A stretch of 56,224 bases of DNA. It comes from Rhizaria sp. SCN 62-66 (taxonomy: Eukaryota). The stretch is from the NCBI GenBank assembly GCA_001724265.1, contig MEDY01000120.1, forward strand, positions 62,001 to 118,224. The letters are read 5' to 3'. A model generated the notes under the pieces. That model worked only from the letters and a program-made list of their open reading frames with translations. It did no database searches and was not told where the DNA came from. This document shows, piece by piece, positions 2,545 through 56,224 of this stretch; position 1 is the stretch's first letter; each line of letters starts with the position of its first letter. The translations under genes were made by a program, and so were the position numbers.

Positions 2545-4233
2545 ATGAATGATGGTACGTTTTTATTTTGTCTCTAATGCTTGTTATCCTTTAGATCTGT
2601 TCATTCCCCAACCCTTCGCTATTCCACCGCTCTCACTACTCCTATCTTTCTTGCTCCTGCGCTCGACCATCTTTTTCAAACGCTTGCAGCGGCTGCGCGC
2701 AATCGCGTGTTGATCCGTGATTTTGATGTGCTCTACCAGCAGTCCATGACAGGCGCTGTGCGTCTCGCAGACGCCGTCGCCAACCCGGCTTCTTCGCAAG
2801 CCGCAGTGTACGTCATACTTCTCCTTACTGTCGCTCACACACTTCAATATAAAAACTAAACAACATATCGCTCACATGTGCCGCCAATTACAATTGTTTA
2901 CGTATACCACTCTAGTGACGAGGCGCTGGCGGCTCAGCTGGCGTCTCTGGACGCGATCGCGCTGTCTGCTTCGTCGTCGATCCTGTCCCTGCAGGCGCAG
3001 GCCACGGACGCCGCGCGCTTCGGGGCCGTGCTCTCGGCCTCGGCCGCCTCCTGCGCCGCACTCGCGCGCGAGACCGCCGCCGCCGCGGCCTCTGCGCAGC
3101 GCGAGGCGCGCCGCCGCGTGCGCCGCGACGCGTAGCGCGCCGCACTGACTTCTGTCGCCGCCGTCGCGCCGCGGGCAGCGTCGCTGGCGCAGCACGCGCA
3201 GACGCGCCGCGAAACGGCCGAGCTCCACGCCGCGCGCCGCGCCGCCGCCGCCCGGGCCGCCGCAGTCCGCGCGCAGCTCGCCGCTGCCGTGCACGGCGCG
3301 GCCGTCGCCGGCGGCGCCACCTTGGGCCGGCTGCCGCTGCCGCTCGCGGCCGCCACCGCCGCCGCAGCTGGTGCGCCCGCGCCCGCGCCTGTGCCTGCTG
3401 CTGCCACTGTTGCTGCGCAGCGCAAGAGCAGCAGCAGCAGTAATGGTGAGCACGACGACAACGATGAGGGCGATAACGCGGCCTCTGCGTCCGCCGCCGC
3501 CGCCGTCGCCGCTGCCGCCGCGGCGGCCGCCGCTGCGCCTGTGCTGCTGTTCGGCGCGCTGCTCTCTGCGGCGGACGCGGCCGCGCTGGCCGTGGCCGCG
3601 GCCGCCAGCCTGGACGGCGGCGATCCCGCGCTGCGCGACGTCGGCGTCGCAGAGGCTGAGGCGGCTGCGGCGGCCGCGGCCGAGGCGCGGGGAAGCGACG
3701 ACGACGACGATGACGACGACGACGACGACGGCGACGACAGTGGCAGTGACCGTGAAGGCGACAACGACAGTGACGCGGCGGCCTCTGCCGCTGCCGCTGC
3801 CCCAGAGGCTGCCGAGGCTCAGACAAGGGACAGTAAGACGAAGACCAAGGCTAGCTCTCGCACCAAGCGCCCCGCCGCGGCCGCTGCGGATGGCAACGAC
3901 GCCGACAGCACGGGCGACGGCGACGAAAACGACGACGACACTAGTACTGGCGCTGGCACTGGCGCTGGCGCTGGGCAGAGCAAGCGGGCGCGCCCAGCCC
4001 AGGCTCCGACCCGCGCGGCGGACAGCACCGAGGACCCGGGCGCTGCGGAGAAGAACGACGTCGATGACGACGACGGCGGCGACGGCGACAGCGACGGCGA
4101 CAATGATGACGACGACGGCGATGGCGAGGGCGAGGACGAGGGCGAAGGAGGCGCCCGCAGCAGGCGGAGCGGGCGGCGCAGCGGCCGCAGCGGCCGCAGC
4201 GGCCGGAAAGACGGCCGGAGCGCGCGCCGGTGA
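2545..4233 (+). CDS. THOC7: THO complex subunit 7-like coiled-coil protein with long acidic/RS low-complexity tail; contains in-frame TAG at 3133-3135
   Basis: Exons 2545-2554, 2690-2807 and 2916-4233 are phase-consistent, with GTACGT..AG introns (481 aa). N-terminus MNDAAARNRVLIRD resembles THOC7 D..IR.RLL. The segment after the TAG (PRAASL..E...L..RAQL) aligns without gaps, from memory, to THOC7 (DRHETL..E...L..RKQF). Stop TGA. Confidence 0.65.
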
Positions 4234-4813
4234 GCGAGCGAGCGAACTGTGAGGGCAGTGAGCGAATTGCGAGCGCAGTGAGTAGACGACCTCGCACCTG
4301 TTGGCTGTGACGGAGAGGGTGCGGACATGAGACTATTGAGCTATTTAGTGTGCCGAGGGCCTGTGCCAACTCGGCTGACTCTGCCATCATCAAGGACAAT
4401 TAGAGGATGCTACATACACAATCGTGAAGCAGACAATTCTTCAAGTCGACTCGAACTCCGAAATAGGATATGTGTTGAAAAATCCACCGATATTATGCAT
4501 CGTATGTTTCTTTTGCTGAATATTTTAAGTTGATTTGTGAATCTTCAAGTGGCTGGCGCTGGCTGCTGGCGTCTCAGCTTGGATTCTTTGATGGCCTGGT
4601 TGCCACATTCGATTGTGATAGATTTTGGTCGTCATTTGTCATGAGGTTATTTGCACAGATATTTGAAAGATATTATATTACAGTTCATTTTTTCATATGC
4701 CGAAGTAGCACCATGAAACGATAATATCAACCTTTCCAAATCCCTCTCACTCTCACGCACAGCCAGACCCGCGAGCCTTCGTCTTAGTTAGGCCACAGTT
4801 GTTGTCCCTGAAG

Positions 4814-5533
4814 ATGAGGCCAGCTGTGGTTTTTACGCCCCCGACGGCGCCATCTTGGCAGTACACAGGCACTACTTCCCCAAAGACCGGCAAGTTTCAT
4901 GGACATGGCACGCTTGTTTACCCATCGGGCGCCTTTTACGCCGGCTCCTTCTGCTAGGGCATGCGCAGCGGCTTCGGTCGTCTCAAGTCTGCTGGCGGCG
5001 ACGAATACGCGGGCACCTTTGCCAAAAACCTGTACCACGGCTTTGGCACGCTGCACTACGCCAACGGCGACGTCTACTGCGGCTCTTTTCGCGCGGGCCG
5101 GCGCCACGGGGCGGGTGTGTGCGTCACGGCCGACCTCGTCGAGCACGCCGGCTTCTGGCGCGACGACGTGCGCTGCGGCTTTGGCGTCGAGCAGGCCGTG
5201 CCGCTGGTGTCGGCTGCCCTGGCGATGCTGCGGCGCGGCGTCCGGCCCGCGGCGCAGCGCGACGACGAGCCGGACTCGGACCCCGACAAGTTCGACTCTG
5301 ACGCTGACGAGGACGACGGCGGCGAGAGTCGCCGTCGTGTCTCGGCGAGCGCCGGAAAGAGCAAAAACAAGGTAAAGGGCAAGGGGAGCAAGAGTATGGG
5401 GGGTAAAGGCACGAAGCATAAGATCAAACGCAAGGTCAAGAGCAAGGTCAAGACTAAGGGCAAAGGTAAGGGCAAAGCCAAGGCCAAGAGCAAGAGCACG
5501 GCCAAGCGCAGCACGTTCATTGTCAACGACGAA

Positions 5534-5568
<35 letters not shown>

Positions 5569-8500
5569 AAGCGACGCTCTGGAGGCCCCCCCTGCCCCGA
5601 CCCCGGCCGCGGCCGCCAAGTCTGCGCCCCTGCTGCGGCCGGGCTCGTGGGAGTTCCTGTGCAGCCGCGAGCGGTGCGCGCTGTCCCCGGCGCCCGTGGG
5701 CGTGCGTGGCCGCGCGGGGCTGTTTCTGGGCGGCCGCCTTACGAGCGGCGGCGCGGGGCTGGCCTGGGACGCCGAGACGGCCACCACGTTCGTGGGTTCG
5801 TGGACGGCCGCGGGGGAGCCGCTCGAGGGCACCCTGCGGACCTCGACGGCCTTCCAGCCCGTCTGCACCGCGGACACGCCCGCCTCGGCGTCTACGCGCG
5901 GCGCGGCGCCCCAGCTCTACACGGGCCGCTTTGCGGAGCGGCCGCGCGCGCCGGCGTTTGACGCGGGCGGTCCCGGCGTGTCGGCGCCGTTCGCGGCCTA
6001 CCCGCCCGCGCCGGCCGCCGTGATTGCCGCGGCGGCCGCGGGCGACCCCACCGCGACTGCGCTGGCCATGGCCGCGATCACGGGCTACGAGGGCAAGGTG
6101 CGTGTCGACGACCTGCAGCCGCACGAGCAGGGCCGAGGGCGTCTCCGCGGCGGCGGGCTCGTCGACGGCACCTGGCGCGCCGGCGCACCGCACGATGAGT
6201 GCGCGGCCGTGGGCGCGCTGGGCCGCGGCCGCTACGAGGGCCCCTTCGTCGGCGGCGTGCGGGATGGCGACGGCATCTGGGTCGACGCGCAGGGCGGCGT
6301 CGCCTTCGGCGGGCTCTTCCACGACGGCAGCGCCACACACGGCACACTCACACGGACCACGCTCTCGGGCGCCGACCGCGGCCGGCCCGGCGGCGCGCGC
6401 GACTGCACCGCCCTCTGCGGCCGCGCTGCCGGCACTGGCGCTGGTGCTGCCTCTGGCGCTGGCGCTGGCTGCGGCTGCGGGCGCGCGCTGGCGCGCATGC
6501 CGTGGTGGTGGACAGGCGCGGGCGTGCCGCGGCGCTGGCACAACCCCACATGGCGCTCTGCGCGCTCGGACCGGCTCGAGCAGCACTACTGGCGCCGGCA
6601 GGACACCGAGTACAAGACGCTGCGCGCGTACTAGCAGGCCTGGGACGCAGTGCGGTTGCGGAAAATCATGCGCCGTCCTTGCGACGTCGCCGTCAAGAGG
6701 GGACTGATGCCCGCGCCGGCCAAGATGCTGCCCGCCGCGGGGGTCGCCGAGGCCGCGGCCGCGGCTGATTACGTGCGGCGCGGCGCGCGCTTCAGCTACG
6801 AGGACGCCGAGGCGGGCGAAAGCGCGGCGCGGGCTGCCGAGATCGCGCGCGTCAAGGCCGTCATCGCGCGCACGGACTCCGAAATCGACGACATCTATTT
6901 CCGCAGCCGCAGGAAGGCCTCCTCACTGACGCCCCCGCGCGGCTGCGGGGCCTGGCGCTGGCGCCCGCGCGGTCCGCCGCTGCTGGTGCCGGCGCGCGCG
7001 GTGGACTTCGCATTTATGGCGCGGGCCGCGGCGTGCGCCACCGTGATCGCGCGCGCGGGCAACGAGGACGAGGGCAGCGGCGTCCCGCCGCCGCTGCCCG
7101 CGGCCGCCGCGCAGCACGCTGCCCCGCTGGACCTCGCCTCGCGCCGCGGGCTGGCTCTGCGGTACCCGGACCCCGCGCCGGACTCGGCCCTGACCGCGCC
7201 CGCGCAGAGCGCGCTGCGGGCGCGCGCGCGGCTGCCGCACGAGCCCGTGGGCGGCGCGCCCGTGGAGACGTACAACGGCTCCTTCTCGGTTGAGGAGCGC
7301 TACCACGACGACGAAGGCACGCTGCAGCTCGCCGGCTGCGTGCGCTACGACGGCGGCTTTGCGCACGGGCGCTTCGAAGGCCACGGCCGCCTCTCGGTGC
7401 TTGCGCCGGCCGCGCCGCCGGAGCGCGGCAGTACGGCCGCGCTCGACGACGAGCGTGCGAGCACGGAGTGGGCGGGCCGCTACGTGGGCGCCTTCGCGCG
7501 CGGACTACGCCACGGCCACGGATATTGGTGGCCCGCGCGCGCGGCCGTGCGCTATTGCGGCCAGTGGCGCCACGACCGGCCACACGGCGCGGGCATCGCC
7601 GTCGTCGCCTCTGGCGCCGAGGTGCGCGGCCACTGGCGCGGGGGCCGCCCGCCGCGCGATGCGGTTGTGACGCTGCCGTGCGGCGCCGAATACACGGGCA
7701 CGCTCGACCGGCTGTGGCGCGCCGCGGGCCGGGGGACGCTCTCACTGCGGCGGCCCGGCGCGGGCGGCGGCAGGGGCTCCGTCTACAGCGGCGACTTCCG
7801 CGGCGGGCTACCGCACGGCATCGGCACGCTGCGCCACGGCAGCGGGCTGCGCATCAGCGGCTTTTGGCGCGCGGGGCTTCCGCGCGGCCTCTGCGTCGTC
7901 GAGTCGCCGCGCGCGGCCCTCTACTTCGGCCAGTTGCGCTGGGGCCGGTGGTGCGGCCGCGGGCGCCTCTCCACGCCCCACGTCGCAGTTGCGGGCCGCT
8001 GGTCCGGCTGCGGCGAGCGCGGCGCGCGCTTCGGCCCGCGCTGGGCGCGCCGCGCCGCGTGCGGCCGCGGCGTCGCGCTCGGCCGCAACGGCGACTGCTA
8101 CGAGGGCGCGCTGCTGGGCGCGCTGCGGCACGGGCGCGGCGTTTTACGCACGGCAGCGGGCTACGTCTACAGCGGCCGCTGGCGCCGCGGCCGCTGGGAG
8201 GGCTGCGAGGGCGAGCTGACGCTGCCCGGCGGCCACAGGACTGTGCGCGGGCGCTGGCGCGGGCGTGAGATGCTCGACTGCGACACGGGCGTTGTGCTGT
8301 TTAAAGACGAAGGGCTGTTTGTGCCGCACGACCTTGCGCCAGACACAGATGATGCGGCGTCGCAGTCTAGCAACAACAAGAACAAAAAGAGCAACAATAA
8401 GAGCAATAACAAGAGCAAGAGCAGCAATTACAAGGGCAAGGACCAGAGCAATGCCGACCCCCAGGCTGTTGCGCCTGCTTCTGTTGCCTACCACGGCTAC

Positions 8501-11314
8501 GAGTGCGACTACGACAAGGCACCTTCCGGCGCCGCGCGCGCGGGGCCCGGCAGTCTGCACTTCGCTAACGGCGACGTGTTCACGGGCACCTTCCCGGCCG
8601 GGCTGCTTGAGGGCCAGGGCGAGTGCCGGTACGCGTCGGGCCGCCTCTCCAGCTTCCGCGGGCAGTTCGAGCGCGGGCAGCGCCACGGGTCCGGTGCCGA
8701 GACCGCGGCCGCGGGCGGCGTGCTGAGCGCGACGTGGGTGCGCGGGCGGCGCGAGGAGGGCGGCGCCTACGCGCGCTCGCCGGGGCCCGCGCCGCTGCGG
8801 CAGGCGCTCTCCTGCGACGACCCCGCTGACGCGGAGCTGCTGCGCGCGCGGCGGCAGGGCGCGGCGGAGCGCGGGCGGCGCGTGCAAGACAAGGCCACGG
8901 GCGCGTGGCACGACGAGGGCAAGGGCCAGGTCGTGCTGCCGGGCGGCGAGGTCTACGTGGGCGACTTCCGCGACGGGCGCGCGCACGGCGCGGGCACGCT
9001 CTCGCGCGACGGCGCGGTCGTGGGCAAGGCCGAGTGGCGGCGCGGGCGGCTGCACGGGCGCGGCTGGGTTACGGCCGCGGTCGGCGACCGCGCGCGCTTC
9101 AGCGGCGACTGGCGGCGCGGGCGCCCGCACGGCTCGGGCGAGTTTTCGTCCCCGCGCGGCGCCACCGAGGTTCTGCCCGCGGGCGCAGTCACGTACGTCG
9201 GCGCGGTTGCGCGCGGGCGCCCGCACGGGGCAGGCGTGTTGACGCTGCCGTTCGGGCCCACGTACCGCGGCCACTTCGTGCGCGGCGCGATGGCGGGCCA
9301 GGGCGCCGTGACCGCGCCCGAGGGCATGGACGTGACGCTCATGGCGCCGACGCTGTCGAGCGCCGCGTGGCATCGCGCGTGGGACGTCTTCGCGCTCATG
9401 ACCTTCGAGGCAAAGGGCGAAATGCGGCCGGCGGGCAGCTACGCCGGCCCCGCCGTCTCGCTCTGGGCCTGCGGCACGGGCTCGAGCGCGCTCAAGCAGC
9501 GCAACGGCTGCATTAACGTCTACACCGGCGAGTGGGCTGGCGGGCTGCGCCACGGCCGCGGGCGATGCGGCGTGACGTCGCCGCAGACGGGCTGCTGCAC
9601 CGGCTACACCGGCCGCTTCTCGGCCGGCGGGCGCCAGGGCCCGGGCATCATGGACGCCGAGACGCCTACGGGCACGATGGTGCACCGCGGCGAGTACGTG
9701 TGCGACAAGAGCTTTGGCCGCGGGCGCCGGTTCGTGCCCTGGCTTGGCGCCGCGCACTTTGGCCCCATGTGGGGCGAGGAGGTACGGACAGGGCGCGAAA
9801 AATATTGTCATGTGCTTCTGCCAATGCCAATTTCGAAGAAGTTTCGATGACATTCACGTATTGATTTCTATTAGAATTTTAACTTTCCATCAATGTTTAT
9901 TCAAATTAGACAAACTAAAGTCTAAGCGCGTTTTTTCCACGTAAACTCACACATTTCTTTTACATATCATATTATTATTTTGTGTCGTTTCGCTCTTCGC
10001 AATTTTTGTTGGCTACGACGCTTTTAGCAATTGCAAGGGCGCGCGATAATAGTTGGCGCGGACGGCGGATCCGGCATGGCGTCCGAGGCCGCCCTGGGCG
10101 AGTTGATGCAGCAGTTTATGGCGACCGGCGACCCGCGCGCGCGGCAGCAGCTAGAGCGGCTGAGCTCCGAGCAACACCGCGTGGCCCGCGCCAAGCCCGT
10201 GCCAGCGGGCCGCGGCATCGTCTTCGAGGGGCTCGTCGCTGACGGCGTCATGTGCGGCCAAGGCCGTCTGCTGCAGCTCGGCGGCACTGGCAGGGGCGCG
10301 GGCGCGGCCGCGGGCACGCTCACTGAGGCCAGCTTCATCGGCGGCGCCGTGGCCGAGGGCCGCGGCGTCGTAATTTCGCCCACCGGCGCCCGCCGTGAGG
10401 GCTCCTTTACCGACGGCGAGCTCCAGGGCGCGGGGCTCGAGGTCGACGCGCGCTGCGTGCGCGGCGCGGGCGCGTGGCGCGGCGGGGCCAAGCACGGGCC
10501 CTGGGTCTACACCGCGCCCGACGGCGTCGTTGCCACGACGAGCTACATCGGCGGCACGCGCGTGGGCGCGCACAGGCTCGTTGGCGTTGTGCCGCGCGCC
10601 GTTGCCGCGGCCGCGTTCGGCAAAGACTACTACAACAATATCACGAACGCACGCACAGCTTTGACAGCTTCTTCTACGTCCGCTCATGCAACTGCTGCTG
10701 CGAATGAGCCTATGACTGGTGCTGGTGCTCGTACCAATACCGTTTTTGGCGGCTCTGCTTCCGGCTCTGGCCCCAGCTCTAGCCTGAGTGCCGGTACCGC
10801 GGCGCGCAGCCCAGCGACTCGGTTCTCCGGCCCCTCTGCGGCCGCGCGCGTCATGTGCATGGTGATGCGCGAACACGCGTTGGACGCGACCCCGGTCCCC
10901 ACGCTGGACGGGCCCGCGGGCGCTTCCTTTGCGCCGCTCGTCTTTTCGGATGAAGTCCGGGTCGAGGCGCGCGCGCGCGCGCGGGCCCGCCGCGTCGCGC
11001 GCGCCGTCTGCCGCGCCGTGTGGGCCGCGGCGGCTGACTGCGGCGTGCCCGGCGCCGTCGCGGCGCTGGACGAGACGCTCTGGGGCTGGGTTGACACGCA
11101 GTACCCGCACCTCGGGCGCCCGAAGCAATCGCAGACGCAGACGCAGATGCAGCAGCAGCCGTTGGTGTTCGAGACGACCAAGTTGAGCAAGGCCCAGGCC
11201 GAGGCGGAGGCGCAGGCGGCCGCGGCGAAAGATCGCGCGACGGCTGCAGCCAAGGATGATGAAGACGCGGCGAAGCTCGGTGTGGCGCTACGTAAAATGC
11301 TTTGCATGTTCTAA
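4814..11314 (+). CDS. Giant MORN-repeat protein (~2,084 aa); contains in-frame TAGs at 4955-4957 and 6632-6634
   Basis: One frame from ATG 4814 to 9781 if TAG is read as sense, then a phase-0 intron 9782-10027 (GTACGG..TTTTAG) and exon 10028-11314. Many Y.G.(F/W)..G..HG.G repeats throughout. This joins track ORFs 4961-6634, 6650-9850 and 10031-11314. Stop TAA. A further upstream exon is possible (AG at 4761-4762). Confidence 0.8.
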
Positions 11315-12831: not shown

Positions 12832-14703
12832 TTACTTCTGCTGCGGTTGTTGCAAGTAGCCAAACGAGAACGCCGCGCCAGCACCAGAGCCATTGCCGTT
12901 GCCATTGCCGTTGCCGTTGCCGTTCAGATGCGCGTAATTGCCGCCGCCGCCGCCGTTGCCGCTGCTGCCAGCGGCGCCGTGCGCGCCGTGCGCGGGGGTG
13001 AAAATGGCGGCGGCGGCCTGTTTGGCCACGACGCGGCCGTAGTCGACGCCGTCGTCCGCCGAGCCTGCGCCGACGCCAGCGCCAGCGCCAGCGCCAGTGC
13101 CCGCGCCAATGCCGGAAGGGGTGGCGAGGTCTAGGCCGAGCGCCGACAGCCCCAGGCCGTTGCTGCCGCCGGAGCCCAGGTCTAGCCCGAGGTCTAGGCC
13201 AAGCCCCAGGCCAGGAGTCTGACCGTGACCGTGACCGTGGCTTTGACCGGGTGCCGGGTAGGCCGTCAGACTGACGCCGCCCATACCGAGCCCGCCAAGC
13301 GCACCCTGCCCGTGGCCGTGAGAGTGACCGTGGGCGTGGCTGAGAGGCGGCGACGGCGAGGGCGCCGCAGACGCAGCCGCCGAGTGACTGGTCGAGTGAC
13401 TGGCGCTGGGGCCCAGGGGGTAGCTCGTGTGACCGAGACCGCCCAGCCCGGCCAGTCCGGCCAAGCCAGACAGACCGAGCGAGCCGCCGCTGCCAGTCAA
13501 ACCGCTGTTGCTGAGGCCACTGCTGCTGACTGAGTGGCCGAGCCCGCTGCCGCTGCCGCCGTTGCCAGTGCCGGCGACACCGAGGCCGAGGCCGAAGCGT
13601 AAGCCAGCGCCGGAGCCAGTGACGGCTCTGGCCGCAGCGGGCGTGGCGGCGGCGGCGGCGGCTCCGCTGGCGCTAGCGCTGCTGAGGCCGTGGCCGCCGG
13701 AGCTCTGGCTCGACGGGGAGGCCGCGAGGGAGGTGTTGCCGCTGCCGGCGCCGCTGGGGCCGCCGCTGCTGCCGCTACAGTTGCTACGCGCGCTGGACGA
13801 GGGGTACGAGCTCAGCACGTGCTGCAACGGCTGCTGCTGCTGCTGCTGCTGTTGTTGCGAGAGCTGCGATCGCAGCATCTGCTGTTGCTGCTGCAGCAAG
13901 AGCATCTGCTGCTGCGCGAACTGCTGCTGCTGCTGTTGCTGCTGCAGAGCGCTCCCATACCCATTGTCGGCAGTCATCCCCAGGCTGAGGCCCAGGCCCA
14001 GGCCCAGGCCGAGGCCCGGCGACTGCGCCCGCGACTGCGAATGCGCGAGCGAGTGCGCGTGCGCGCCAGCTGCATTAGAGGCCAAAGCGGATGATGAGGT
14101 CGCTGGCGGCGCGGTGGCGAACAGTCCGAGCGGCAGCGCGGGCGCGGGCGCGGTGAGGTCGGCGCCCGCGCTCGTGGGGTTCGCAGCCGAGGCCGCGGCG
14201 GCGGCGGCGGCGGCGGCCGAGGCGGCGGTGGCGCGCTTGGCGTCGTAGCTGGCCGCGAGCTGCTGCTGCAGACGCGAGATGTCCGCGATCTGCGCCTGCA
14301 GCCGCGCGATCATGGCCTCCTCGCTGTCGACGGAGCCGAGGCTGATGCTCGCACCGGCGCCGGAGAGCGAGATGGGGGCGATGCCGACGCCGCCGCCGCC
14401 GCCGCCCGCGCCGCTGCCGGCGAGAGAGAGGGAGCTGAGGACGGGGCTCGGGCTGGGGCCGGGGGCGGGGCTAGGGCTCGCGGCGGAAGAGAGGAGCATG
14501 TCGAAGTGGTTCGGGCTGGGACTGGGGTGGACCGAGGGCAGTGCGGACAGCGATGGCATGGGGAAGCCACCGCCGCCGGCAACGCCGGTGAGGGCGCTGG
14601 CGTTGGCGTTGTTACTACTGTGGAGGTCCAGAGCACTGAGGCCGGCGCCGTTGAAGCTGACGAGGCTGTTGAGGGTGCCGAGGCCGTTGACGCCGGCCAG
14701 CCC

Positions 14704-23525: not shown

Positions 23526-24044
23526 ATGTCTGCGAAGAACCCCGCCGAGTTCGGCAAGACTCTGCTCATGAACCAGTTCAAGCACCTGTCCAAGCACTGC
23601 CCCGATGGCTTCTCCATCGGGCTCGTCGACGACAACGTGTACGAGTGGCAGGTGCTGATGCAGGGCCCCGAGGACACCGACTACGAGGGCGGCTACTTCC
23701 CCTGCCGCCTCTCCTTCACCTCTGACTTCCCTAACTCGCCGCCCACGATGCGCTTCACCACGCGCGGCTTCTGGCACCCGAACGTGTACCCCGACGGCCG
23801 CGTATGTATCTCGATTCTGCACGAGGCCAAGGAGGACCCGTTTAACGAGGCGGAGCAGATGAGCGAGAAGTGGCGGCCCATCATCGGCGTCGAGGCGATC
23901 CTCGTCTCGGTCCAGTCCATGCTCTCCGAGCCCAACTTCTCCTCCCCCGCCAATATCGACGCCAGCGTCGAGATGCAGAAGGACCCCGAGGCCTACCGCA
24001 AGCGCATCCGCCAGCTCGTCCGCCGCACGCTCGAGGAGCTCTAA
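23526..24044 (+). CDS. Ubiquitin-conjugating enzyme E2, Ubc7/UBE2G-Cdc34 family
   Basis: HPNVYPDGRVCISILH (active-site Cys) followed by the family-specific acidic loop EAKEDPFNEAEQMSEKWRP; also GP.DT.YEGG.F and SPANIDA. Stop TAA. Confidence 0.96.
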   Translation: MSAKNPAEFGKTLLMNQFKHLSKHCPDGFSIGLVDDNVYEWQVLMQGPEDTDYEGGYFPCRLSFTSDFPNSPPTMRFTTRGFWHPNVYPDGRVCISILHEAKEDPFNEAEQMSEKWRPIIGVEAILVSVQSMLSEPNFSSPANIDASVEMQKDPEAYRKRIRQLVRRTLEEL

Positions 24045-31700: not shown

Positions 31701-33051
31701 CGCCGCGCCAGAATCGACGGGTCGCGCGAGGTCGAGAAGCCCATGAGCTTCCACGCGCGCATGCCGCCGGACATGACGGCGGCAAAGACGCGGCCGTGGG
31801 CCTTGAGCTCTGCGACGACCTCACGCGAGTCGCTGTCGTTCATGCAGACGATCGCGAGCAGCGCGTCGGCCGGGAAGGAGGAGATAATCTTGCCGATGTC
31901 CGTGCGCGGGAACCAGTTGATGCCTGGAGGGAGGGCGGAGTGTGCGCAGGTCAGGTGTGGAGTTTTGAGTGGGTCAAAAGAGATATGGGCAGGCACGGGG
32001 GGAGGGTGTGCGATAGGGGCAGAACAAGGGCGAGCGCCAATAATAAAGTGGCAAAAGGGAATAAAAGAAGGAAAGAGAACGAAAAAAGTGAGAATGAAAG
32101 TTCAAAGAGGACGGGAAAAGGGCGCACTGGTGGAATGCCAGGGAAAGAGTGTCGAGAATATTTGTTGGCGCAGGCATGTTCGGAAGTGAATACATCAGTT
32201 TAGGCGCATCGTAAGCGCAAAAAAGTGTGGGCACGTACCGGGAATGTACCCGACGGGACCGGTGAGCTCGTTTTCGAGGCGCACATCGATGATATGGACG
32301 GCGTGGCCGAGCTGTAAGTGTTGCGGACCAGGGTAGCGATGACGCGAGAGGTCAGCGGGGGTGTTGACCGACGGAGAGGAAAGAGCGAAAATAACGGCAT
32401 AAGTGAGTTTATGGCGCGGCACATGCAGTGAAACTTGTTAAAGAAATGCAGAATGTTCGTATTTAAACAAGAATATCCGTATGTTGCGGTGATAAAACGC
32501 GACAATGGTAGCTTTTTCTGGCGCGAGCCGTAACGTACCTGAGCCACGAAATCGCAGGCCACTGTGAACTTATGCGCCGCCAGGTGGGTGATCCAGTTGC
32601 GGCGGATATAGTATTCGGGGTGCCCGGGCGGCGGGAGGTGCGCGACATACTCTTGGAACTTTTTCTCGTCGTCCAGCATGAGCTGGGCCTTGAGCGTGTG
32701 GATGTGCTGCAGCGACATGGAGCCGGGGAGCGAAGGGGTAGCCGACTGGGGCTTCGAGAAAGGCACGGGGTCCATCGGCGACGAAGGATATAGGCCTGAT
32801 TTAGGATTAACTAACGGCTTTGCGAGGGAACTTGTCGTAAAACAATGCAAAGACACCGCGGAAAACGGCGTGGTTGCGTCGAAACGGGAAGTCGAGCGAA
32901 GGCCTCCGACCTGACTCGGCCCGGCTGACCAGCTCGGACCAATGGGCTGGTTGGGCCCAGTCAGACTCGACTGTGCTGAAGAGCTGAGAGAGAAGGGAGC
33001 GGGGGCCCCGGCGGGGACCCGGCCAGCGAGGCGAGAGAGACCTGCCCGCAT
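28709..33051 (-). CDS. Rhodanese domain + Cys/His/Cys metal-site (carbonic-anhydrase-like) domain fusion with Ala-rich tail
   Basis: Six phase-consistent exons: 33051-32539, 32311-32239, 31923-31283, 31115-30723, 30610-30041 and 29881-28709 (1,120 aa). Rhodanese motifs IIDVR..E...GYIPG, IVC and GGMRAW. Then SCIDGR..GTPGGD, YMHTD and HIGCGH. Stop TAA. Confidence 0.8.
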
Positions 33052-43066: not shown

Positions 43067-44364
43067 ATGTCGTACTCTCACGCGCTTCCCGCCACGCACG
43101 GCGGCGTAGACATTTCCGCCAAGATCGAGACTTTCATGTCGAACAAGCAGTACTACGAGGCTGAGCAGCTCTTCATGACGCAGGTCAACCGCGCCGTCGC
43201 GCAGAAGAACTACGCCACCGCCGACGATCTCGCGCAGCGCGGTATCCAGGCCATGCTTACCGTCGCACAGGCCCACGTCTCGGCGCACGCTCCGTCGTCC
43301 GTCAAGAGCGCCGTTCTGGCTGCTGGCGAGCTCGGCAAGCTCTACATCTCCGCCCTCAAGCGGTCCGGTGCCGCGCTGTCCGAGTCCGTCGTCGACGACA
43401 TCATCCGCCTCGGCGCCGCGATGGCCGCCGTACGTACCGCCGCCGAGGCACAGGGCGCGGCGTACAACGACAATGATGAGAGCGGCGAGCGCGCCTCGCT
43501 GCCCGCCATTTCGCGCGTCGCGGAGACCTTCCTCCGCGAGGCCCAGGTACGCCTGCTAACTCACGTTTCAAACGATACATGATTTATATCGCTTACACGC
43601 AAATATTTATTAAGTCATTATATATCAATAGTTTCGTTAAAGTATTCTACCACTTTTTACGACGAGTGATGCTTATTTATCGATATGTCTTAACTCTTCC
43701 TTGGTGTCTTCCTTTGTCTTCGCAGGAGTGGGTTGCCGATACCGCGGCCGCCGCCTCCGACGCGTCTTACCCCTCGTACGGCTCCCCGCGCATCGAGGCC
43801 GCCCGCGCGGCCGTTGTGGAGCTGCTCCGCGGGCCCATCGCGGCGCAGCCCCACTACGCCCGCGCCTTCGCCTATGCCGCCTCCGCGGGCTCCGCCGTCG
43901 ACACCGCCTACGCGACGACCTTCGCCACCTGGCTTAAGGCCCAACGCGGCGGCGACGCCGACTGGTCCCTCGCCCAGTGCCTCCGCGGCGGCCTCTACGC
44001 TGTCGCCCTCGCGCTTGAGGGCACCGACCTCCGCGGCGCCAATGCCGTTGCGGCGGCGGTCGAGGCCGCATTCCCCTCGGCCGAGGTCGCGGCGTCGGGC
44101 TCGGCGGCCGCCGCGGCGCTGCGCGAGTTCACGGCGCAGCTGCTGGCGCTGGCGCGCTGCGACAAGGCCGCTGCGCCGCTGTTTGAGAGCGCGCGCAAGG
44201 CCGCCGCCAAGAAGGGCGTGTTCGAGAAGGAGGGCGAGGAGGCGTTCCCGTTGTCAGCGGCCGTGGCCAAGGTCGGCGCGGCGCTGTTCGATGTGCAGCC
44301 GCCGCGCGGGATGCTCGAAGAGCTTCTCGGCATCTCCAACATCGGCGACCTCTTCAAGAATTGA
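43067..44364 (+). CDS. GET4: Golgi-to-ER traffic protein 4 (Get4/TRC35) homologue, divergent
   Basis: Exons 43067-43546 and 43726-44364, with a phase-0 GTACGC..CAG intron (372 aa). N-terminal YYEAEQLFMT..R..QKNY..A..L..G matches the Get4 YYEAHQ helix pair; later G.P motif (YGSPRI). Stop TGA. Confidence 0.75.
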
Positions 44365-44779
44365 AATGGGCCGGGCGACTGCGAACAAATAGCGACGAAC
44401 GAGCAAGCTACTCTCTACGACGACGCTGACGATTAAGTCTGAGACGACAAGCAGGAGACTCTTGAGCTGGAGTCTGCGTCGGTGATTGGCATGACTAGGA
44501 TAAGTTGTTGTACACGAGTGAGCTTGCTGGTGTCATACCATAGCTCAAGCTTCGTATGTTCGAGGTTGAGACACATGCACAAGAGTGTGGTGTCTGGCGG
44601 GCCAGAGCTCTGGCTGCTCTCAAGTAGTATACAAAAAGTGTTTATGTTCTGAAGTCATATCTCGCGCATTTCATCATCAAACTAGATTTACAGAATTGAA
44701 CAGAATCTACAACTTCGTCATTTTTTTCATTTTCTTTTTATACATCGCCAGTGTTTTGTTAAGGGGTATATCGGCGCGA

Positions 44780-45586
44780 ATGGATTCTACTCTTCGGGAC
44801 CGCCGTCCAGCCCCGCCCTCCGCGGCCGCTGCTGCTCCCGCGGCCTCTCTCGCGCGCTCCGCAGCCCAGCAGGTGGACCGCAGCCGCGCCGGCCCACTGC
44901 CCTTGCCCTTGCTGCCTCCGCGCGCCACAGCAATCCTTGCAGCCGCCGCCCTGCGCGCCCGCGATACTGACAAGAGCAACAGCAACGATACCACCAACAG
45001 CAACAACAGCAACAACAGCAGCAACAGCAGCAACAGCAGCGGTGTAGCAGGCGATGACAGCGACTGCGGCGGCAGCGGTGAGGCAGCCGGCACCCGCGCG
45101 CGCGCCGCGAGCAAGCGCGCTCTGCGCGATGCGGCCTCCGAGGCCGTGTTGGCACGCTCGGCGGCTCTGCTGTCCTCACGGCAGTCGCAGACGCACGCGC
45201 AGCAGCGGCGTCGGCGCGGGGCCCTCGCGCGCGCGCTCGTCCCGCTCGTCGTGCTGGCCTTTGTCTACGCGGGGTACTGGCTCTGGCGGCGGTCGGCGCA
45301 CCACGCGGCCTTCTGCTGCGGTCGCGCGGAGACTGTTGCCGTCCCCACCGTCTTTGCTGCTGCACATGTCCCCCGTGACGCAGCAACGGTCGGCACTGAG
45401 ACCGAGATGACCTCGGCAACTGCGACTGGGACTGGGACTGGGCCTGCGGCTGACATCAAGAGCGCTGCTGCTGCAGGTGTGGGCAACACGGGCACTGTGC
45501 GGGCGCGTATCCTGCGTCTCGTGTGCACCTGTGCCGACGACGACATCGCCTTGCCACATCCCGCGCCACAACCCACAGTCCCTTGA
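44780..45586 (+). CDS. Hypothetical single-pass membrane protein
   Basis: GC-rich ORF from ATG 44780. Basic RRRRG followed by hydrophobic ALVPLVVLAFVYAGYWLW; Asn/Ser tract; FCC and CTC motifs after the TM segment. Stop TGA. Confidence 0.6.
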   Translation: MDSTLRDRRPAPPSAAAAAPAASLARSAAQQVDRSRAGPLPLPLLPPRATAILAAAALRARDTDKSNSNDTTNSNNSNNSSNSSNSSGVAGDDSDCGGSGEAAGTRARAASKRALRDAASEAVLARSAALLSSRQSQTHAQQRRRRGALARALVPLVVLAFVYAGYWLWRRSAHHAAFCCGRAETVAVPTVFAAAHVPRDAATVGTETEMTSATATGTGTGPAADIKSAAAAGVGNTGTVRARILRLVCTCADDDIALPHPAPQPTVP

Positions 45587-45813: not shown

Positions 45814-47675
45814 TCAAAAGTACCGCTTGTGGATGATGGTCTTGTCGGCCTCGAACTCGGCGCGCGTGACACGGCAGAGCTGGAACGTGGGCAGACTGGC
45901 GAACATGGACGCACCGACCCACGAGGCCCACTTGCGCGACATATCCAGCACCAGGTTCACCGGCACGCGGCCCTGCGTGCGCTTGACGAGCTCGCTCTTG
46001 ACGCGCAGCGGGAGTCCCGGCAGCAGCGAGCCGCCACCGACGACGACGACGCAGTTGTAGAGGTCCTCGCGCAGCGCGGGGTCGCACGCTGCGATCGCGC
46101 AATGGAGCATCTCCCCCGCGCCGTCAGCGGGCCGTGCCGCGGGGGTCGCCGCCAGCAGCTGCAGCGCGGGGGACCGGATCGGGATCGAGGCCAGTGACAG
46201 CGGCAGCGGGAAGTGGCGCATCGGGCCCCCGCCACTGCCGGAGCCGGGGGCGTTGCTGTTGTTGCCGCCGCCGCCGCGGACGCCGCGACCGCCGCCCCGG
46301 CCGCCGCCACGACGCGCGCTGCTGCCGCCGGTGTCGTCGCCATTGATGTCGCCGTTGCCGTCGCCCTCGTTGTCGTCGTCGTCGTCGCCGTCGCCGTTGC
46401 CGCCGCCGCGGGGACGGCTGCTGCTGCCGGCGGCGCCGTCGCCGTCGGCGTGCGCGGCCGCGACAGGGTATAGCGAGGACGGGTTGACGACGGCCCCCGT
46501 GGCGTCAGTCGCGGTGACCGCGCGCGCGGGCGAGAAGATGACCTCCGCGGCGGCCGCGCGCAGGGGCTCGTCGAGGCGCAGGATGGAGCCGTCGGGCAGC
46601 TCGAAGTCCGCCGCGCCCACGGTCACCGCCGCGGCCGCGGCCGCAATCGCCGCATCCGTCTCAGACACGCCCGCTGTCGCGCCGGAAGCGGAGGCGGAGA
46701 CGGAGGGCGTGGGGGAGCAGATGCAAACGCGCTCCTTGATGGTGCGTGCGAGGTCAAGCTGCGCGTGGGGGTTGTTTCCCAGCGCCGCAAGGACGCCCAC
46801 CTCGGCGAGCGCGGCCAGCAGCAGCTGCGTAATGTCGGCGCCCGCGACGCCGAGGTTCTGCGCCGCGTGGTTGAGCGCGAGGCCCTCGAAGACGGGCACG
46901 GCCGAGGTGACGCCCTCACCGATGTCCAGCACGACGCCCGTGGTACAGCCGGTAGAGAAGAGCGCGAGCACAGCAGAGTTGTACAGGTACAGGCTGGGCG
47001 GCGCAAGCCGCTTGAACAGGTGCTCGACGAGGTCGGAGCGCGTTTGCGGGCGCGAGTTAGGGGAGACGGCGATCATCAGCGGGTGCTGCGTGAGGCATGG
47101 TGATAGGTTGGGTTTGTTAGGGAAGATTGTGGTGATTGGGAAGTCAAGTGAGATAGAAAAAGACATAATTTTAAATTAAAAACTACCCCGTTACTATAAT
47201 ATATCAGAGTGATATCAGTTGAGTCAAATTGCAGCGAGAAACAGATCATAGAAAGAGAGATACTGGGGAAGAGCAGCTTTGTTAAGGAGAGTTGAGCGGA
47301 GAGGGGACGTACGAGAGCGGGCTCGCGAACGGCGAGCGAGACGCAGATAACGTGCTCGATAAGGAGCTCGAAGGCCTCCCAGTCCTTGATGACGCCCCGC
47401 TCGATGGGGCGGATGACTGCGAGCGTCTGCTTGCCCGTGGCCTCGAGGGCCAGACGCAGCGCGTCGAGCGCGGCGTAGCCGAAAACCCACTCCAGGTCCT
47501 TGAAGACGTGCGAGACTTCAGCGGGCACGGCCTGGTTGGCGAGATGAATGGCGATGGAAGGGATCACAACGCGCGGAATGTCTTCGCCGGCGAATCCGGC
47601 CTTGATGTAGCCGGATCCGGGGTCGATCACAATGACGTCGTGCTCCGCCAAAGTGGACATCGGGACGGGGTTCAT
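45814..47675 (-). CDS. Divergent actin-related protein
   Basis: Exons 47675-47313 and 47085-45814 (544 aa). Motifs IDPGSGYIKAGFAGE, PIERG.I.DW, TGVVLDIGEG, FELPDG, VVGGGSLLPG and SWVGAS. Alternative start at 47660. Stop TGA. Confidence 0.9.
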
Positions 47676-48661: not shown

Positions 48662-48696
<35 letters not shown>

Positions 48697-51600: not shown

Positions 51601-53751
51601 CGCGCGCTGCGGCCGCCATGCCCGCGCTGTCTGGCGCTGGTGACGCGCACCGTGCGCGCGCTGGCCCCGCGCCTGTGCCGCCGCAGCGGGCTGCACCTGC
51701 TGGGCTTCGACCTCGTCCGCTGCGCGCGCACCGGCGGCCTGACGCTCGTTGACCTGAACCACCTGCCGACGTTCGACGGCATGCCCGGCTTCCCCGCGGT
51801 GCTGGCCGCGACCGTGCTGCGCGCCTGGCACGAACACTGGACCGCGTGGCACAACCGCACCGTCTGCGCCACTGTCGCCATCCTGCTGCAGCAGCAACAA
51901 CAGCAACAGCAGCAACAGCAACAACTCGCTGTATGTCGCTTCAGTGCGTCTAAGGGGGTGCTTACCTGCGCAGCTCCAGTGCCGCACCCGCTTGCGCTTG
52001 CTCCTGCGGCGACCCGCAGCGGTCTGGCGGCGGCCGCGGCCGCGCTGCCGGCCTGGGTGACAGTGCTGGGCTACGGCTCGCTGCTGTCACCGGTCTCCAC
52101 ACGCGTCACGTGCCCCAACCTCAGGGGCTTTTCGGCCGCGCTGCTGCCCCCAACGGCCTACGCCGACACACCGCGCGACAGGAGCAGAAACGACGCTGAT
52201 GTGACACCATGCCCGCAGTCGCATTCGCAGTCCTCTGACTGGCTGATGACGTACGACCGCGTGTTCTCGCTGATCGCGATGTCCATCATCCGGTCCCGCA
52301 ACAAGGAGTTCACCGGTCGCCTCGCGCTGCTGTCCCCGTTGCCCGCGCGGGCGACGGCCGACTTGGTGCAACCGCAGCCGCTGCAGAGCGCCGCACAGCC
52401 GCAGACTGCCCCCGCCTCGACTGCGGCAACAGCGGCAACAGCTGCGCCAGCAGCGCCAGCAGTAGCAGCAGCAGCAGCGGCGGCAACTCTGCCGGCGGCA
52501 ACTGCGGCTTCGGTGACCGAGACGCCTTCGTGGTGGTGCAACGACTGGGACGACCGCAACATCGCCGCCGTGGGCGTCGCGCCGCGGCTATACAGGCGCA
52601 ACCACACTTGCTGTCACGGTTCGCTGAGCGACTCGCAGCTCCAGCACAGTGTGCTGGTGTCTGCATTCCAGCTTTCCCGCGAGGACTTCGTGGCGTACCT
52701 CAGGCGCGAGCAGCGGTACGAGTTCACCACGGCCACGGCCACGCTTGTCGACGCGACGGTGCTGCGCCAGTTCAGCGCGGGCGCGCCGCTGACCGCGCTG
52801 TCCCCACAGCAGTCGCCGTCGCAGTCAGAGGCACAGTTTGCGGCGCCGGTGCAGACAGCGGACGAATGTGAGGCCGCCGCGGCCGCTGCGGCGACATCGG
52901 AGACAGAGAGCGGTGTGAGCTTTGCTGACAAGAGCCTTGCCGACGTGCTTGCTGCGACAACGCTGCCGCAGCGCGTCATGCGCGTTGCTGCGGCCGTCGC
53001 TGCCGCCAACGCCGCCAACAGCTGCTACACGAACGCTCAGAGTCTGCGCTCGCAGGCTTATTGCCCAGTAACCGTGACTGGCGTGATCTGCGTCGGCTCG
53101 ACCGAGCTGCGGTACTGGACCGAAAAAATGGCGAGCGCCGTGCACCACTTCGACTCAGTGAGTCGCGACATCGCCGCGCCGCTGTGGCAGTGGGGCTCGG
53201 AGAGCGACCGGGCCTCTGGGCTGCTCGACACCACCGCACCTACGACGACAGAAACAACGGGAATGATAGGCACGACTGGCACGAACGCCAAGGACGGCAG
53301 TGGCAACATCGTCAGCGCGACTGCGAGTACGGCCGACAGCTGCCAGTGCCGGTGCGGCAGCGGCTGCCGCTGCAACTTCAGCGGCCACTGCCACCCCCGC
53401 CAGACACTGTCGTCGACCGAGCTTCGACCCGGCAAGCGGTACTTGCAGTTCTGCCTCCGGGCCTCGTACGAGCTCGCCGGTCGGTGGGGCTTCGCCAACT
53501 TCCTCCACACGACGAGGCTTGCAGACGGGCGCGCGGTGCCGCCGCCGCCGCTGCCGCTGCCGCTGCCGCCGCTGTCTGATGAGGTTGCGGCTCCTGTGAC
53601 CGCGACTGCGACTGAGACTGATGCTGGGTCGGAGACACTTGTGGAGGCGGGATACTGCGGCGCGACGACGCTGGCGCAGTACATCGCGGAAGGCCGGGAG
53701 GGCGACTACGGGCTTAAGGCGGTCAAGGCGCTGCGGTTTAAGTACATGTGA
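48172..53751 (+). CDS. Inositol-trisphosphate 5/6-kinase (ITPK1-type ATP-grasp) fused to a gamma-glutamylcyclotransferase-like domain
   Basis: ITPK motifs in order: PVIVK..VASG..DSH.M, H.G.LFKVY, R.S, GL.LLGFD, VDLNHLP.F.GMP. C-terminal VLGYGSLLS, YDRVF, RE..Y, YL..C, FL.TT.LADG and TTL..Y. Single 1,859-aa ORF. Stop TGA. Confidence 0.8.
48471..48515 (+). repeat. Imperfect (TCTAGC)n hexamer microsatellite encoding poly-Ser
   Basis: Directly visible tandem TCTAGC units within the ITPK ORF. Confidence 0.8.
49522..49593 (+). repeat. Four imperfect 18-bp in-frame tandem units (ETxxHx)
   Basis: GAGACTnnnnnnCACnnn x4, encoding ETLAHS-ETMAHG-ETVVHA-ETVSHA. Confidence 0.85.
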
Positions 53752-54191
53752 TTAACTGTGGAGAGAGCAAGATATGAGTTTTGGAGCTTACTAGTTAAGC
53801 GACATTAAAATACATATTTTATATAACATGAATAAAACATGATTTTAAAGACCTTGAAAACACGTTAAGCAAAGTTGACATGCTTGATGCAAGAATTCGC
53901 TGATCTGATACAAAAATTTGAGATCAAGATTCGTATAAATACGAGAGGACCACACCAATACATTGCTCCAGTTTAGCTCTAAGAGTATTTTTATTAGGCA
54001 CATTTGCTTGAGAATTGAGATTATATTCATATCTGCTGCAGTCAGGCACTTCTTCAACATGGCGTCCGCAGCTTGGCGTGGGCGATGGGAGGGGGACTTT
54101 CTGTCAAGCTTATCGATCGCTATACGCTTTCCCCAGATACACAGGTTATGTGTTATAATACCTTATGAAGTGTTGTATGTTCTAGTATAAT

Positions 54192-56224
54192 ATGTTTATC
54201 TACAAGAACAATGATTTATCCACAATAGACTCACTCAAGCTGATCGATCGCGATACGCTTTCCTTCTTTCATTCCCCAGGTTTGAACACCATTTCTCTTC
54301 AACAGAGCTCACCATGTAACACGAACTTCAGCTCGCGGAGGGATCGCGAGCTTCTCCGAGTTCACACAGCGATTAGTCGCATTGCAGCTTTGGACACGGA
54401 CCTGGCCGCACTCATTGAGCTCGATGAGGCGTATTGTGACAAGTCGCTCTTCGCAGTGCTCTGCGAGAGCGGGATCGTTCCGTTGCTTCTACGGTCCCTC
54501 GTGCTTCCCAGCAACTCAAGTAGCGTCGATAATAGCGCGGTTACTGCCCGAATTTTTACCCTTGTAGCCATGTTCAAAGCTATGCTCCGTCATGATGGTG
54601 GCCTAGAGCTTCTACGTGACTCCCGTGCTTTAGAGAGCCTGATTGCTGTGATACCACATCTCCAGACCGACCGCGAGCTGGCTCGTCTGATCGAGGTTGC
54701 AACCTCTCTTTCAATTAATTCGACCATCCCAACGCCCACCAGGCTTGCTGTGCTGGCGCAGGTGCAGGCGCATATGCGCGCTAAAGAGCAACGAGAACGC
54801 CAGTCTCCACAGCAGACGAGGACGGAAGAACAGTACGAAGAAGATGACTACTATTACTACTCTCTGAGTGGATTGATCAATGATATTCTTTCTCCAAGTA
54901 AGGAAATAATCTACACTTCTGATGCGCCCCGCATTTTGTACGCGAACGTCTCGACGCTTGTCCCGCTGCTGCGCAGTGTGATTCGGCGTCATGTACTCGC
55001 CAGTAAGTCTCCTCGACTATAGTTCGAACACGTCCCTATATATGACGCATTGTGCAGCGTGTACAAATGCGGCTACATCGCTGGCAGCAACGATGATGGC
55101 AGTGGTCAATCCGACAACAGCAGCGGAAATAGCAACGTCCCAATAGACGAACAATGCCGACGTGACTTTGCTGACTTTGTGGCTTGTGAGGATTTTGAGC
55201 CCCTGCTGCTGTCCGATCTGACTGACTGGTCGTATCTCCATACTATGTGCGAATATCTGCCTTTGTTTGACGACGAAATCTTTACACGCGTATTTACAAA
55301 ACAGCGTATTGAGAGCATTATTACGGATTTTGAAACGACGCAATTTCCTTCGACTGGTCATCTGTCGACGTTTATGAAAATTTCTGCGCAATTGGCCATC
55401 CGATCCCCGATGTTTGCGCAGCGAATCTCCTTTGTAACATGCTTTGGGGAAATTCGGAAGTTATATGATGAAATGTTTAGCCTCCACGACTATATAAATC
55501 ATTGGGAAATGCTCAATAATACTGCCACTGTGTTGGATAGACATTTGCGCGCTGCCTCTGATGTGACGCTCACAGCGCAGCAGCTGCTGGAGAGTAACGT
55601 CGTGCCGCTTTGCTGCACATTATTGCGACATTTTGTTTTGGCAAGGTGGGAGCTAGTAGAGCAGACATCCCATCCGAGCTTCATACCTATCGCGCTTCTT
55701 CTGCGCGTGCTGCGCGTGATGATGAATACCCGTGACACTTCACCTGACTTTGCACTGCTTGACCGCGAGGGTGAGCCGCGGAATCCCTTCGTAACACAGT
55801 TTGTCCGAAACCATGGAGTGCGATTGCTGGAGACGCTGCGCGGTGGGGACGACTGTTCAAACATTGCTGGAGGTTGCGAGGTGCTGCAGGAGCTTTTGCA
55901 AATGCACACGTTGCTTGTGGGTATGGCCATAATCCCGCCTGGCACAGCCGCAACAAGGTCGCCTGACGCACCAACTCTGCAGAAAAACTGGCAAAAGACA
56001 TTTGACGCGCACATTGCCAGCGTCTTAAAGAAGAGCGGCTACCCACAGCGAGTCAAGTCCGGCCGCCGCACCGCCGCATCATCATCCATCGGACCCCCGC
56101 CCGTTGCTGCGCCCAAACCGGGAGCAAACACAACATGCGCACAGTCAGCCGCTGTGCGCACGCAGAGAATTAACGCGCCAGGTGAGCTGTCTGCTGCTAC
56201 TCTGACTTTGATGCAGAAAATGGC
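54192..56224 (+). CDS. Partial hypothetical helical-repeat (ARM/HEAT-like) protein; in-frame TAG at 55020-55022; 5' end uncertain, 3' end outside window
   Basis: The frame of ORF 54192-55022 continues after the TAG for about 400 stop-free codons to the window end (FEHVPIYDAL...LMQKM). ARM-like phrases occur on both sides (LCESGIVPLLLRSL; LLESNVVPLCCTLL). The true start and any 5' introns are unresolved. Confidence 0.65.

Follow-up and report, generated by a model that had tools for sequence, protein, structure and literature searches.

The 56-kb window analysed here (the whole stretch of 56,224 nucleotides) is eukaryotic nuclear DNA in which four TAG triplets stand in frame within three genes, and the pattern of its stops suggests that UAG is probably read as an amino acid, with only UAA and UGA terminating translation. 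The guanine-plus-cytosine (GC) content is 60-78% across the coding blocks (2-kb bins), and GC at third codon positions (GC3) reaches 0.8-0.9 in most genes. The spacers between genes are AT-rich, with 33-50% GC, and a few hundred bases long. Pfam matches were obtained for a 3-hydroxyisobutyrate-dehydrogenase-like enzyme, a MORN-repeat protein, a ubiquitin-conjugating enzyme, a ZIP transporter, a FYVE protein, an ITPK-like ATP-grasp protein and an actin-related protein. The stretch is contained in bioreactor, wastewater and activated-sludge runs of at least three studies between 2015 and 2025, and its source is an uncultured, GC-rich, intron-poor microbial eukaryote of bioreactor and wastewater metagenomes. 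The hydroxyisobutyrate dehydrogenase-like enzyme is presumably mitochondrial, and the host presumably aerobic. Introns are of the GT-AG type, AT-rich and about 108-160 nt long, with GTACGT, GTACGC, GTACTG or GTAAGT at the 5' site; GTACG is favoured among these sites.

The genes holding in-frame TAGs, and the four sites, are as follows.

2746..4233, plus strand, G2, low-complexity Ala/Asp-rich protein (exon 1 2746-2807, exon 2 2916-4233, stop TGA)
2808-2915, plus strand, intron of G2 (GTACGT..AG)
3133..3135, plus strand, TAG no. 1, codon ~94 of G2
4814..9850, plus strand, G3, MORN-repeat protein of 1678 codons, stop TGA
4955..4957, plus strand, TAG no. 2, codon 48 of G3, position 7 of a 23-residue MORN unit
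6632..6634, plus strand, TAG no. 3, codon 607 of G3
54192..56222, plus strand, G20, helical protein with no Pfam domain, running off the window end
55020..55022, plus strand, TAG no. 4, codon 277 of G20

In-frame TAG codons

Each of the four TAGs (3133-3135, 4955-4957, 6632-6634 and 55020-55022) lies in a long frame free of TAA and TGA, which bears out an earlier note on this DNA that had reported them. The note had also claimed that no gene contains an in-frame TAA or TGA or a frameshift, and this holds for all 13,763 in-frame codons of the 15 coding segments, where TAG occurs 4 times and TAA and TGA 0 times each; the two off-frames of the same segments contain 78 TAG, 102 TAA and 342 TGA. 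The density of sense UAG is thus about 0.3 per 1000 codons (0.03%). Past the TAGs at 3133, 4955, 6632 and 55020 the frames remain open for 366, 558, 1071 and >400 codons, respectively, and the GC3 excess keeps to that frame before and after each of the first three. Other TAG triplets of the window are of a different kind. Those at 31270 and 30613 on the minus strand, present in the ORF (open reading frame) track, are intronic, the one at 26637 closes an ORF without codon periodicity, and the in-frame TAGs at 1038, 4706, 10025, 42646 and 54183 belong to AT-rich leaders upstream of probable start codons.

In G2 the frame at 3133 is fixed by the ATG at 2746 and the intron 2808-2915, which join in phase with exon 2. 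This spliced model is the sole one with a start codon, because the frame of exon 2 and the opposite strand both lack an ATG; a minus-strand gene over G2 was rejected, its 490-codon antisense ORF having no ATG. GC3 is 0.96 upstream of the TAG and 0.86 downstream, and the open stretch past it has about 80% GC, a coding-like periodicity and no in-frame ATG. Frame, composition and codon periodicity indicate that 3133 is probably inside coding sequence.

At 4955 the MORN units adjoining the TAG keep exact register. The Pfam MORN model gives 19.1 bits for the 47 residues upstream (E 0.0011; below the curated cut-off of 22.5), 56.4 bits (2 stretches) for the sequence downstream alone and 70.1 bits (4 stretches) when the TAG is read through, and unrelated MORN proteins align across the site in HMMER (query residues 8-127). 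This evidence matters because a standard-code model could start at the ATG at 4961, two codons past the TAG. Judged by the repeat register and these alignments, 4955 is inside coding sequence. The residue at position 7 of the MORN units of G3, read by eye, is variable and mostly R, A, G or H.

Around 6632 the frame has a GC3 of 0.94 upstream of the TAG and 0.86 downstream of it, and both alternative frames are closed within 75-135 nt. The TAG has MORN repeats on either side, and a reading as two genes leaves a GC-rich gap of only about 33 nt between them. The same three kinds of evidence as in G2 (frame, composition and codon periodicity) place 6632 probably inside coding sequence. A word-index protein search with G3 residues 500-800 returned the window's own ORF as its sole match (1/1), and the best 150 of 32,046 HMMER matches to residues 1-1200 were the own ORF and generic MORN proteins matching only residues ~8-152. 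The public ORF calls P0006 and P0163 begin just past 6632, and such ORFs occur on 4 contigs. Single-nucleotide differences between strains in G3 (2 synonymous, 2 nonsynonymous) are uninformative on selection. One contig of a second study (X3) carries an extra AA after 7102 at a depth of 112.6 of 501, and this depth suggests that the extra bases come from another organism or repeat, not from the G3 locus.

G20 and its relatives

At 55020 the window reads RRHVLASKSPRL-TAG-FEHVPIYDAL, and the related protein P0004 has RRHVLPSESRRSSYKYVAIYDAL; the linker of P0005 is slightly longer. P0004 (67% identity) and P0005 (75%) are collinear with G20 through the site. Because these two related proteins bridge it, 55020 belongs to no intron and marks no boundary between genes, and on the same homology it is inside coding sequence. 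Short introns over the TAG were considered and rejected: GT..AG spans of 20 and 55 nt break the frame and are far below the 108-160 nt of the other introns, and the collinear homologues speak against a 30-nt GTACTC..TAG span. Within the 5' part of the gene a 26-nt direct repeat (54105-54130 and 54234-54259) flanks a possible GT..AG intron, and the true start may for this reason lie upstream of 54192.

At least three further copies of G20 exist, with 67-79% identity: A (P0161 and P0004), B (P0158 and P0005/P0160) and C (P0159/P0162). The family proteins found were P0004, P0005 and P0157-P0162. Each copy is cut by in-frame stops, which fall at the window columns Q192 (CAG), Q570 (CAA), W600 (TGG) and P206; these stops are known from protein ends only and may be TAG, TAA or TGA. 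The P206 column stands beside QQ in an indel-rich stretch, and the W600 stop belongs to P0005/P0160, Trp being conserved there in the window and in P0004. P0158 ends one residue before the Gln column and P0005 begins at the next Met three codons on; since the two ends adjoin at this column, what separates them is an in-frame stop, not the end of a contig. Two of the four family stops recur in second cluster members. Two of the four are at Gln, for which p is ~0.01 given 4.3% Gln, and on a reading of UAG as Gln, two or three changes in the family become synonymous.

The interrupted copies still hold ORFs of 395 and 705 residues. By a rough estimate, neutral decay at such divergence would have left several stops per 400 codons, together with frameshifts. 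Tolerated, that is translated, stops are favoured because the copies keep long ORFs despite this divergence. A Pfam scan of G20 found no transposon domain, and mutation of the repeat-induced (RIP-like) type was rejected as a source of its TAGs (TpA/ApT 0.62, substrate index 1.36). Look-alikes of the C-terminal part of G20 in the Protein Atlas (zf-MYND/Basidiomycota, 0.89-0.91) were weak and of low recognition and were not used. In searches for DNA of the family, a metagenome contig scan gave 1 locus, identical to the window, two genome contig scans gave 0/46 and 0/600 candidate stretches (the second with mostly low-complexity peptides), and a viral contig scan gave 0/72.

Terminators

The ends of the 15 complete gene models are listed below.

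2280..2282, plus strand, TAA of G1, 3-hydroxyisobutyrate dehydrogenase-like; NAD_binding_11 ends 14 residues earlier
4231..4233, plus strand, TGA of G2; gene model end
9848..9850, plus strand, TGA of G3; AT-rich spacer next
11312..11314, plus strand, TAA of G4; gene model end
12832..12834, minus strand, TAA of G5 (3297 codons, without TAG)
24042..24044, plus strand, TAA of G6, ubiquitin-conjugating enzyme; UQ_con ends 8 residues earlier
24653..24655, minus strand, TAA of G7, ZIP transporter; Zip domain ends 4 residues earlier
28709..28711, minus strand, TAA of the multi-exon gene G9-G11 (28709-32101)
32200..32202, minus strand, TAA of G12 (32200-33051), no Pfam match, less certain gene
36491..36493, plus strand, TGA of G13, FYVE protein
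36920..36922, minus strand, TGA of G14 (1906 codons, without TAG)
44362..44364, plus strand, TGA of the two-exon gene G15 (43067-44364)
45584..45586, plus strand, TGA of G16 (44585-45586), no Pfam match, less certain gene
45814..45816, minus strand, TGA of G17, actin-related protein, two exons; C-terminus ...IIHKRYF
53749..53751, plus strand, TGA of G19, ITPK-like ATP-grasp protein (1859 codons, without TAG)

TAA ends seven of these models, TGA eight and TAG none, and there is no in-frame TAG near any 3' end. The earlier note had counted TAA x6 and TGA x7 in 13 genes; its statement that TAG is never used stands, and the count rises to 15 with the two Pfam-less genes, lower in GC3, at 32200-33051 (minus strand) and 44585-45586 (plus strand). 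If TAG made up 25% of stops, finding 0/15 would have a probability of 0.75^15 = 1.3% (0.75^13 = 2.4% for 13 genes). The absence is more striking because a GC3 of 0.8-0.9 should favour TAG over the seven TAA. Three of the TAA ends fall 4-14 residues past the end of a Pfam domain (G1, G6 and G7), and the C-terminus of G17 resembles what we take to be the usual actin C-terminus. The window therefore presents the pattern of a UAG-only reassignment, in which TAG occurs in frame and not as a terminator and TAA or TGA ends lie at domain or homology limits.

These terminators also bear on the idea that UAG is leaky or has a context-dependent dual meaning, being read by a near-cognate tRNA or an inefficient suppressor, with full-length products of G2, G3 and G20 as the result, while still ending some genes elsewhere. 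The very low use of TAG looks as if read-through were costly, 15 terminators leave room for a minority of TAG stops, and dual-meaning codes are reported for Condylostoma and Blastocrithidia (PMC5304391). The four sites, however, share no context, the base at +4 being C, G, C and T; local folds of 41 nt are no better than shuffled controls (z -0.01 to +1.17); and none of the 15 ends is TAG despite the GC3 that should favour it. We consider a leaky UAG improbable.

Recurrence of the TAGs and RNA

The possibility that the TAGs are errors of assembly or sequencing, or are hidden in introns, has to be raised as the window comes from a metagenome assembly and its host has introns, two of which contain the intronic TAGs of the ORF track. 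The same bases, however, recur in contigs of three studies, in a JGI contig and in gene calls of the European Nucleotide Archive (ENA). X1 contigs, which may be the window's own source, hold 3133, 4955 and 6632 unchanged; contigs of X3, another study, hold 3133 and 4955 unchanged; and an X4 contig from a 2025 study keeps the TAG at 4955 in spite of T>C changes at 5089 and 5116. The JGI metagenome contig L001 equals window 52569-55638 with 0 mismatches, the TAG at 55020 included, and P0156, an ORF ending at 55020, occurs on 7 contigs. Because the TAGs recur in independent assemblies, assembly error is ruled out; a fixed mutation is not. As for introns, the surroundings of 3133 and 6632 have 75-80% GC, unlike the AT-rich introns of 108-160 nt, 4955 lies within a MORN unit, and 55020 is bridged by homologues, with GT..AG spans that shift the frame. 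An explanation by artefact or intron is therefore largely refuted and retains hardly any probability. Assembly error and splicing-out had been named in the earlier note as findings that would overturn its reading; the former is excluded, and so is the latter at 55020, by the collinear homologues. Its prediction that standard-code gene calling fragments these genes proved correct, P0156, P0006 and P0163 in public databases being such fragments.

Polyadenylated RNA contigs of the X5 data map to both halves of G3, at 5077-5343, 6714-6977 and further on. Among the 32 pieces listed, with 7,631 more in the set, none covers 3133, 4955 or 6632; this speaks neither for nor against expression or editing of the TAGs. 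Repair at the RNA level would consist of A-to-I editing of the premature UAG to UGG (Trp), as in filamentous ascomycetes, and a stop of one G20 relative (P0005/P0160) does lie at a conserved Trp column. Fungi that edit in this way retain TAG as an ordinary terminator, against 0/15 TAG ends here. The other aligned columns are Q, Q, P and S/L and not W, the 41-nt folds show no significant hairpin at any of the four TAGs, and a large MORN protein, an ITPK-like kinase and 75% GC would be unlike a filamentous ascomycete. The mechanism itself is known, and 71 pseudogenes of this type are reported in Fusarium graminearum (PMC10776026, PMC11156358 and PMC4817773); yet three of about 16 genes far exceeds 71 genes in a whole fungal genome. 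We regard editing as very improbable.

Other features of the window

The three apparent ORFs at 28709-32101 on the minus strand are one gene, G9-G11, because AT-rich GT-AG introns join them; it has at least three such introns, at ~29883-30040, 30611-30722 and 31130-31281. Three very long genes are intron-free, at 12832-22725 (minus strand, 3297 codons), 36920-42640 (minus strand, 1906 codons) and 48172-53751 (plus strand, 1859 codons). All three are filled with low-complexity runs of Ala, Ser, Gly and Gln, and two of them have no Pfam domain. A Protein Atlas search with G14, the gene of 1906 codons, gave no usable match. About 2.6 kb at 26100-28700 has 51% GC and no convincing gene, Rfam finding nothing in it; its longest ORF (26587-27921, minus strand) is without codon periodicity. 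In the window as a whole there are 0 tRNA genes and 0 Rfam matches, and it contains neither an eRF1 gene nor an rRNA or marker gene for phylogeny.

Discussion

The force of the argument lies in a conjunction of observations: the TAGs fall in three of about 16 genes, frameshifts and other stops are absent, the frames beyond the TAGs are long and intact, and two sites are spanned by a repeat or by homologues. We consider it likely, from the sequence pattern, that UAG is read as an amino acid in this organism and that only UAA and UGA terminate. The claim of the earlier note that UAG alone has been reassigned is thus upheld as regards this pattern and the real ends at TAA and TGA; it stands on 15-16 genes and beside rivals that retain some probability.

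Several observations weigh against a reassignment. With a sample of 15-16 genes, the 0/15 is compatible with a TAG share among terminators of up to ~18%. Under the codon usage of the window 64-66% of one-base nonsense changes give TAG, so that four out of four has p ~0.17-0.19, and the exclusivity of TAG among the internal stops is weak evidence when taken alone. The earlier note had spoken of three unrelated genes; G2, G3 and G20 do contain in-frame TAGs, but three of the four sites fall within 3.5 kb in the adjacent G2 and G3. The four largest of the remaining genes, with about 9,000 codons, hold no TAG, and the chance of such clustering under even usage is estimated at ~1%. UAG usage is 10-100 times below that of the UAG-reassigned lineages, on the figures of the reports cited below. 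No homologues of the low-complexity G2 protein, and no orthologue across 3133, were found, nor was there an orthologue spanning 6632 among the matches listed; the RNA contigs that miss three of the sites are a further point. The column at 55020 is a variable linker, with S in P0004 and an indel-rich L/S stretch in P0005, and no consistent amino acid emerges across the TAG- and stop-aligned columns (S; L/S; Q, Q, W, P). The Q, Q, W and P of the G20 family are the spectrum of plain transition nonsense mutations (CAG>TAG, TGG>TAG/TGA). Finally, G20 has a GC3 of 0.56, against 0.8-0.9 in most other genes of the window, and, as the family has several copies, its TAG may be the sign of a copy in decay.

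Much of this can be assembled into an explanation under the standard code, in which G2, G3 and G20 carry fixed nonsense mutations and are genes that have been truncated or split or have died recently, and chance in a small sample accounts for the missing TAG terminators. It would make four TAGs out of four unremarkable, it agrees with the clustering of the sites and with the classic transition spectrum at Q, Q and W, it suits the odd composition of G20 and its three or more other copies, and the ATG at 4961 and another at ~6668 could open separate ORFs right past two of the TAGs. It requires, however, that three of ~16 genes were broken without a single frameshift, TAA or TGA in 13,763 codons, in frames that stay open for hundreds of codons and are bridged at 4955 by the MORN repeat and at 55020 by homologues. 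The gaps between the implied genes would be GC-rich and 3-33 nt long, the true spacers being hundreds of AT-rich bases, the TAGs recur in samples of the years 2015 to 2025, and the terminators give the p of ~1.3% mentioned above. We therefore judge fixed nonsense mutations to be an unlikely explanation, if a somewhat less unlikely one than a leaky UAG.

Under the favoured reading, that of a UAG reassignment, UAG would be read by a tRNA whose anticodon is CUA, in the simplest case one derived from tRNA-Gln(CUG) by a single base change, and eRF1 would no longer recognise UAG. Both changes would be needed by analogy with published cases (PMC5304391). The inserted amino acid may be Gln, a weak favourite with about an even chance of being right, on the basis of precedent, of the Gln columns in the G20 family and of the abundance of CAG, which accounts for 391 codons in the coding segments against 67 for CAA. 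Leu, Trp, Glu or others are possible instead.

The very low use of UAG would point to a reassignment that is young or weakly used. It is conceivable, and we put it forward tentatively as the less probable version, that the window represents a UAG-only reassignment that arose independently and is at an early stage, in a GC-rich eukaryote that is free-living, probably aerobic and neither a ciliate nor a sainouroid or fornicate. UAG would then have gone from all terminators against GC pressure and would be re-entering coding sequence at about 0.3 per 1000 codons, chiefly in genes that evolve fast or have a lower GC, the G20 family among them. Such an intermediate stage has been argued in theory, and no nuclear genome is known to show it.

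As far as we know, no nuclear code in which UAG and UAA differ in meaning had been described before 2017, and reports of them still come from a handful of lineages. Every further UAG-only case puts to the test whether UAA and UAG are truly constrained by their coupling. If true, the present one would be unusual by its very high GC, by stops that are UAA and UGA in about equal shares and by its very low density of sense UAG, and it could show the first steps after the loss of UAG termination. It would also mean that eukaryotic bins from wastewater are mis-annotated by standard-code gene callers. No specific report of a recoded UAG in a wastewater or GC-rich eukaryote was found in the open-access literature searched.

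RNA editing in ascomycetes resembles the window in that in-frame TAGs occur in nuclear genes with intact sequence downstream; there the code is standard, few genes are hit and hairpin contexts are needed (PMC4817773, PMC10776026), whereas the window has neither significant hairpins nor TAG terminators.

In the fornicate Iotanema spirale UAG means Gln, with 204 in-frame UAG in 126 genes and with 104 UAA and 15 UGA as stops (PMC5304391). As in the window, UAG occurs in frame and never as a terminator, UAA and UGA are kept as stops, and Gln is the residue that is weakly favoured here. In contrast, UAA is dominant in Iotanema (104/119), while the window has 4 UAG in ~16 genes and TAA and TGA in a ratio of 7:8, and its organism is GC-rich and has a hydroxyisobutyrate dehydrogenase-like enzyme. 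The sainouroid rhizarian exLh reads UAG as Leu, a well-supported assignment with 384 in-frame UAG in 71 genes and with 56 UAA and 15 UGA as stops (PMC5304391). It shares with the window the split of UAG from UAA, the use of both UAA and UGA as terminators, and the circumstance of being uncultured and recognised from sequence alone. Leu in the window, by contrast, is supported by one ambiguous alignment column at most.

Ciliate genomes are AT-rich, and the window differs from those of phyllopharyngean ciliates in its 60-77% GC across most genes, in its frequent TGA stops and in carrying 16 genes on one 56-kb contig. These ciliates have, as proposed for the window, a UAG-only reassignment that was discovered partly in metagenome-assembled genomes (MAGs), with UAG read as Leu in three TARA MAGs and as Gln in Hartmannula sinica and in Trochilia petrani (PMC11687900). 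There, 78-91% of genes have an internal UAG, and UAA makes up ~87-98% of stops (96.1-98.3% in the TARA MAGs and 91.9% in H. sinica, with UGA at 13.1% in T. petrani); suppressor tRNA(CUA) genes are present in two of these ciliates (PMC11687900). The list of precedents in the earlier note, a sainouroid rhizarian and Iotanema, was therefore out of date, lacking both this group and a ciliate that assigns different amino acids to UAA and UAG (PMC10553269).

Compared with the known UAG-only codes, the window stands apart by its high GC, by TAA and TGA ends in almost equal numbers and by a density of sense UAG that is lower by one to two orders of magnitude. On the strength of 16 genes, the window is most likely another case of this known rare variant of the nuclear code.

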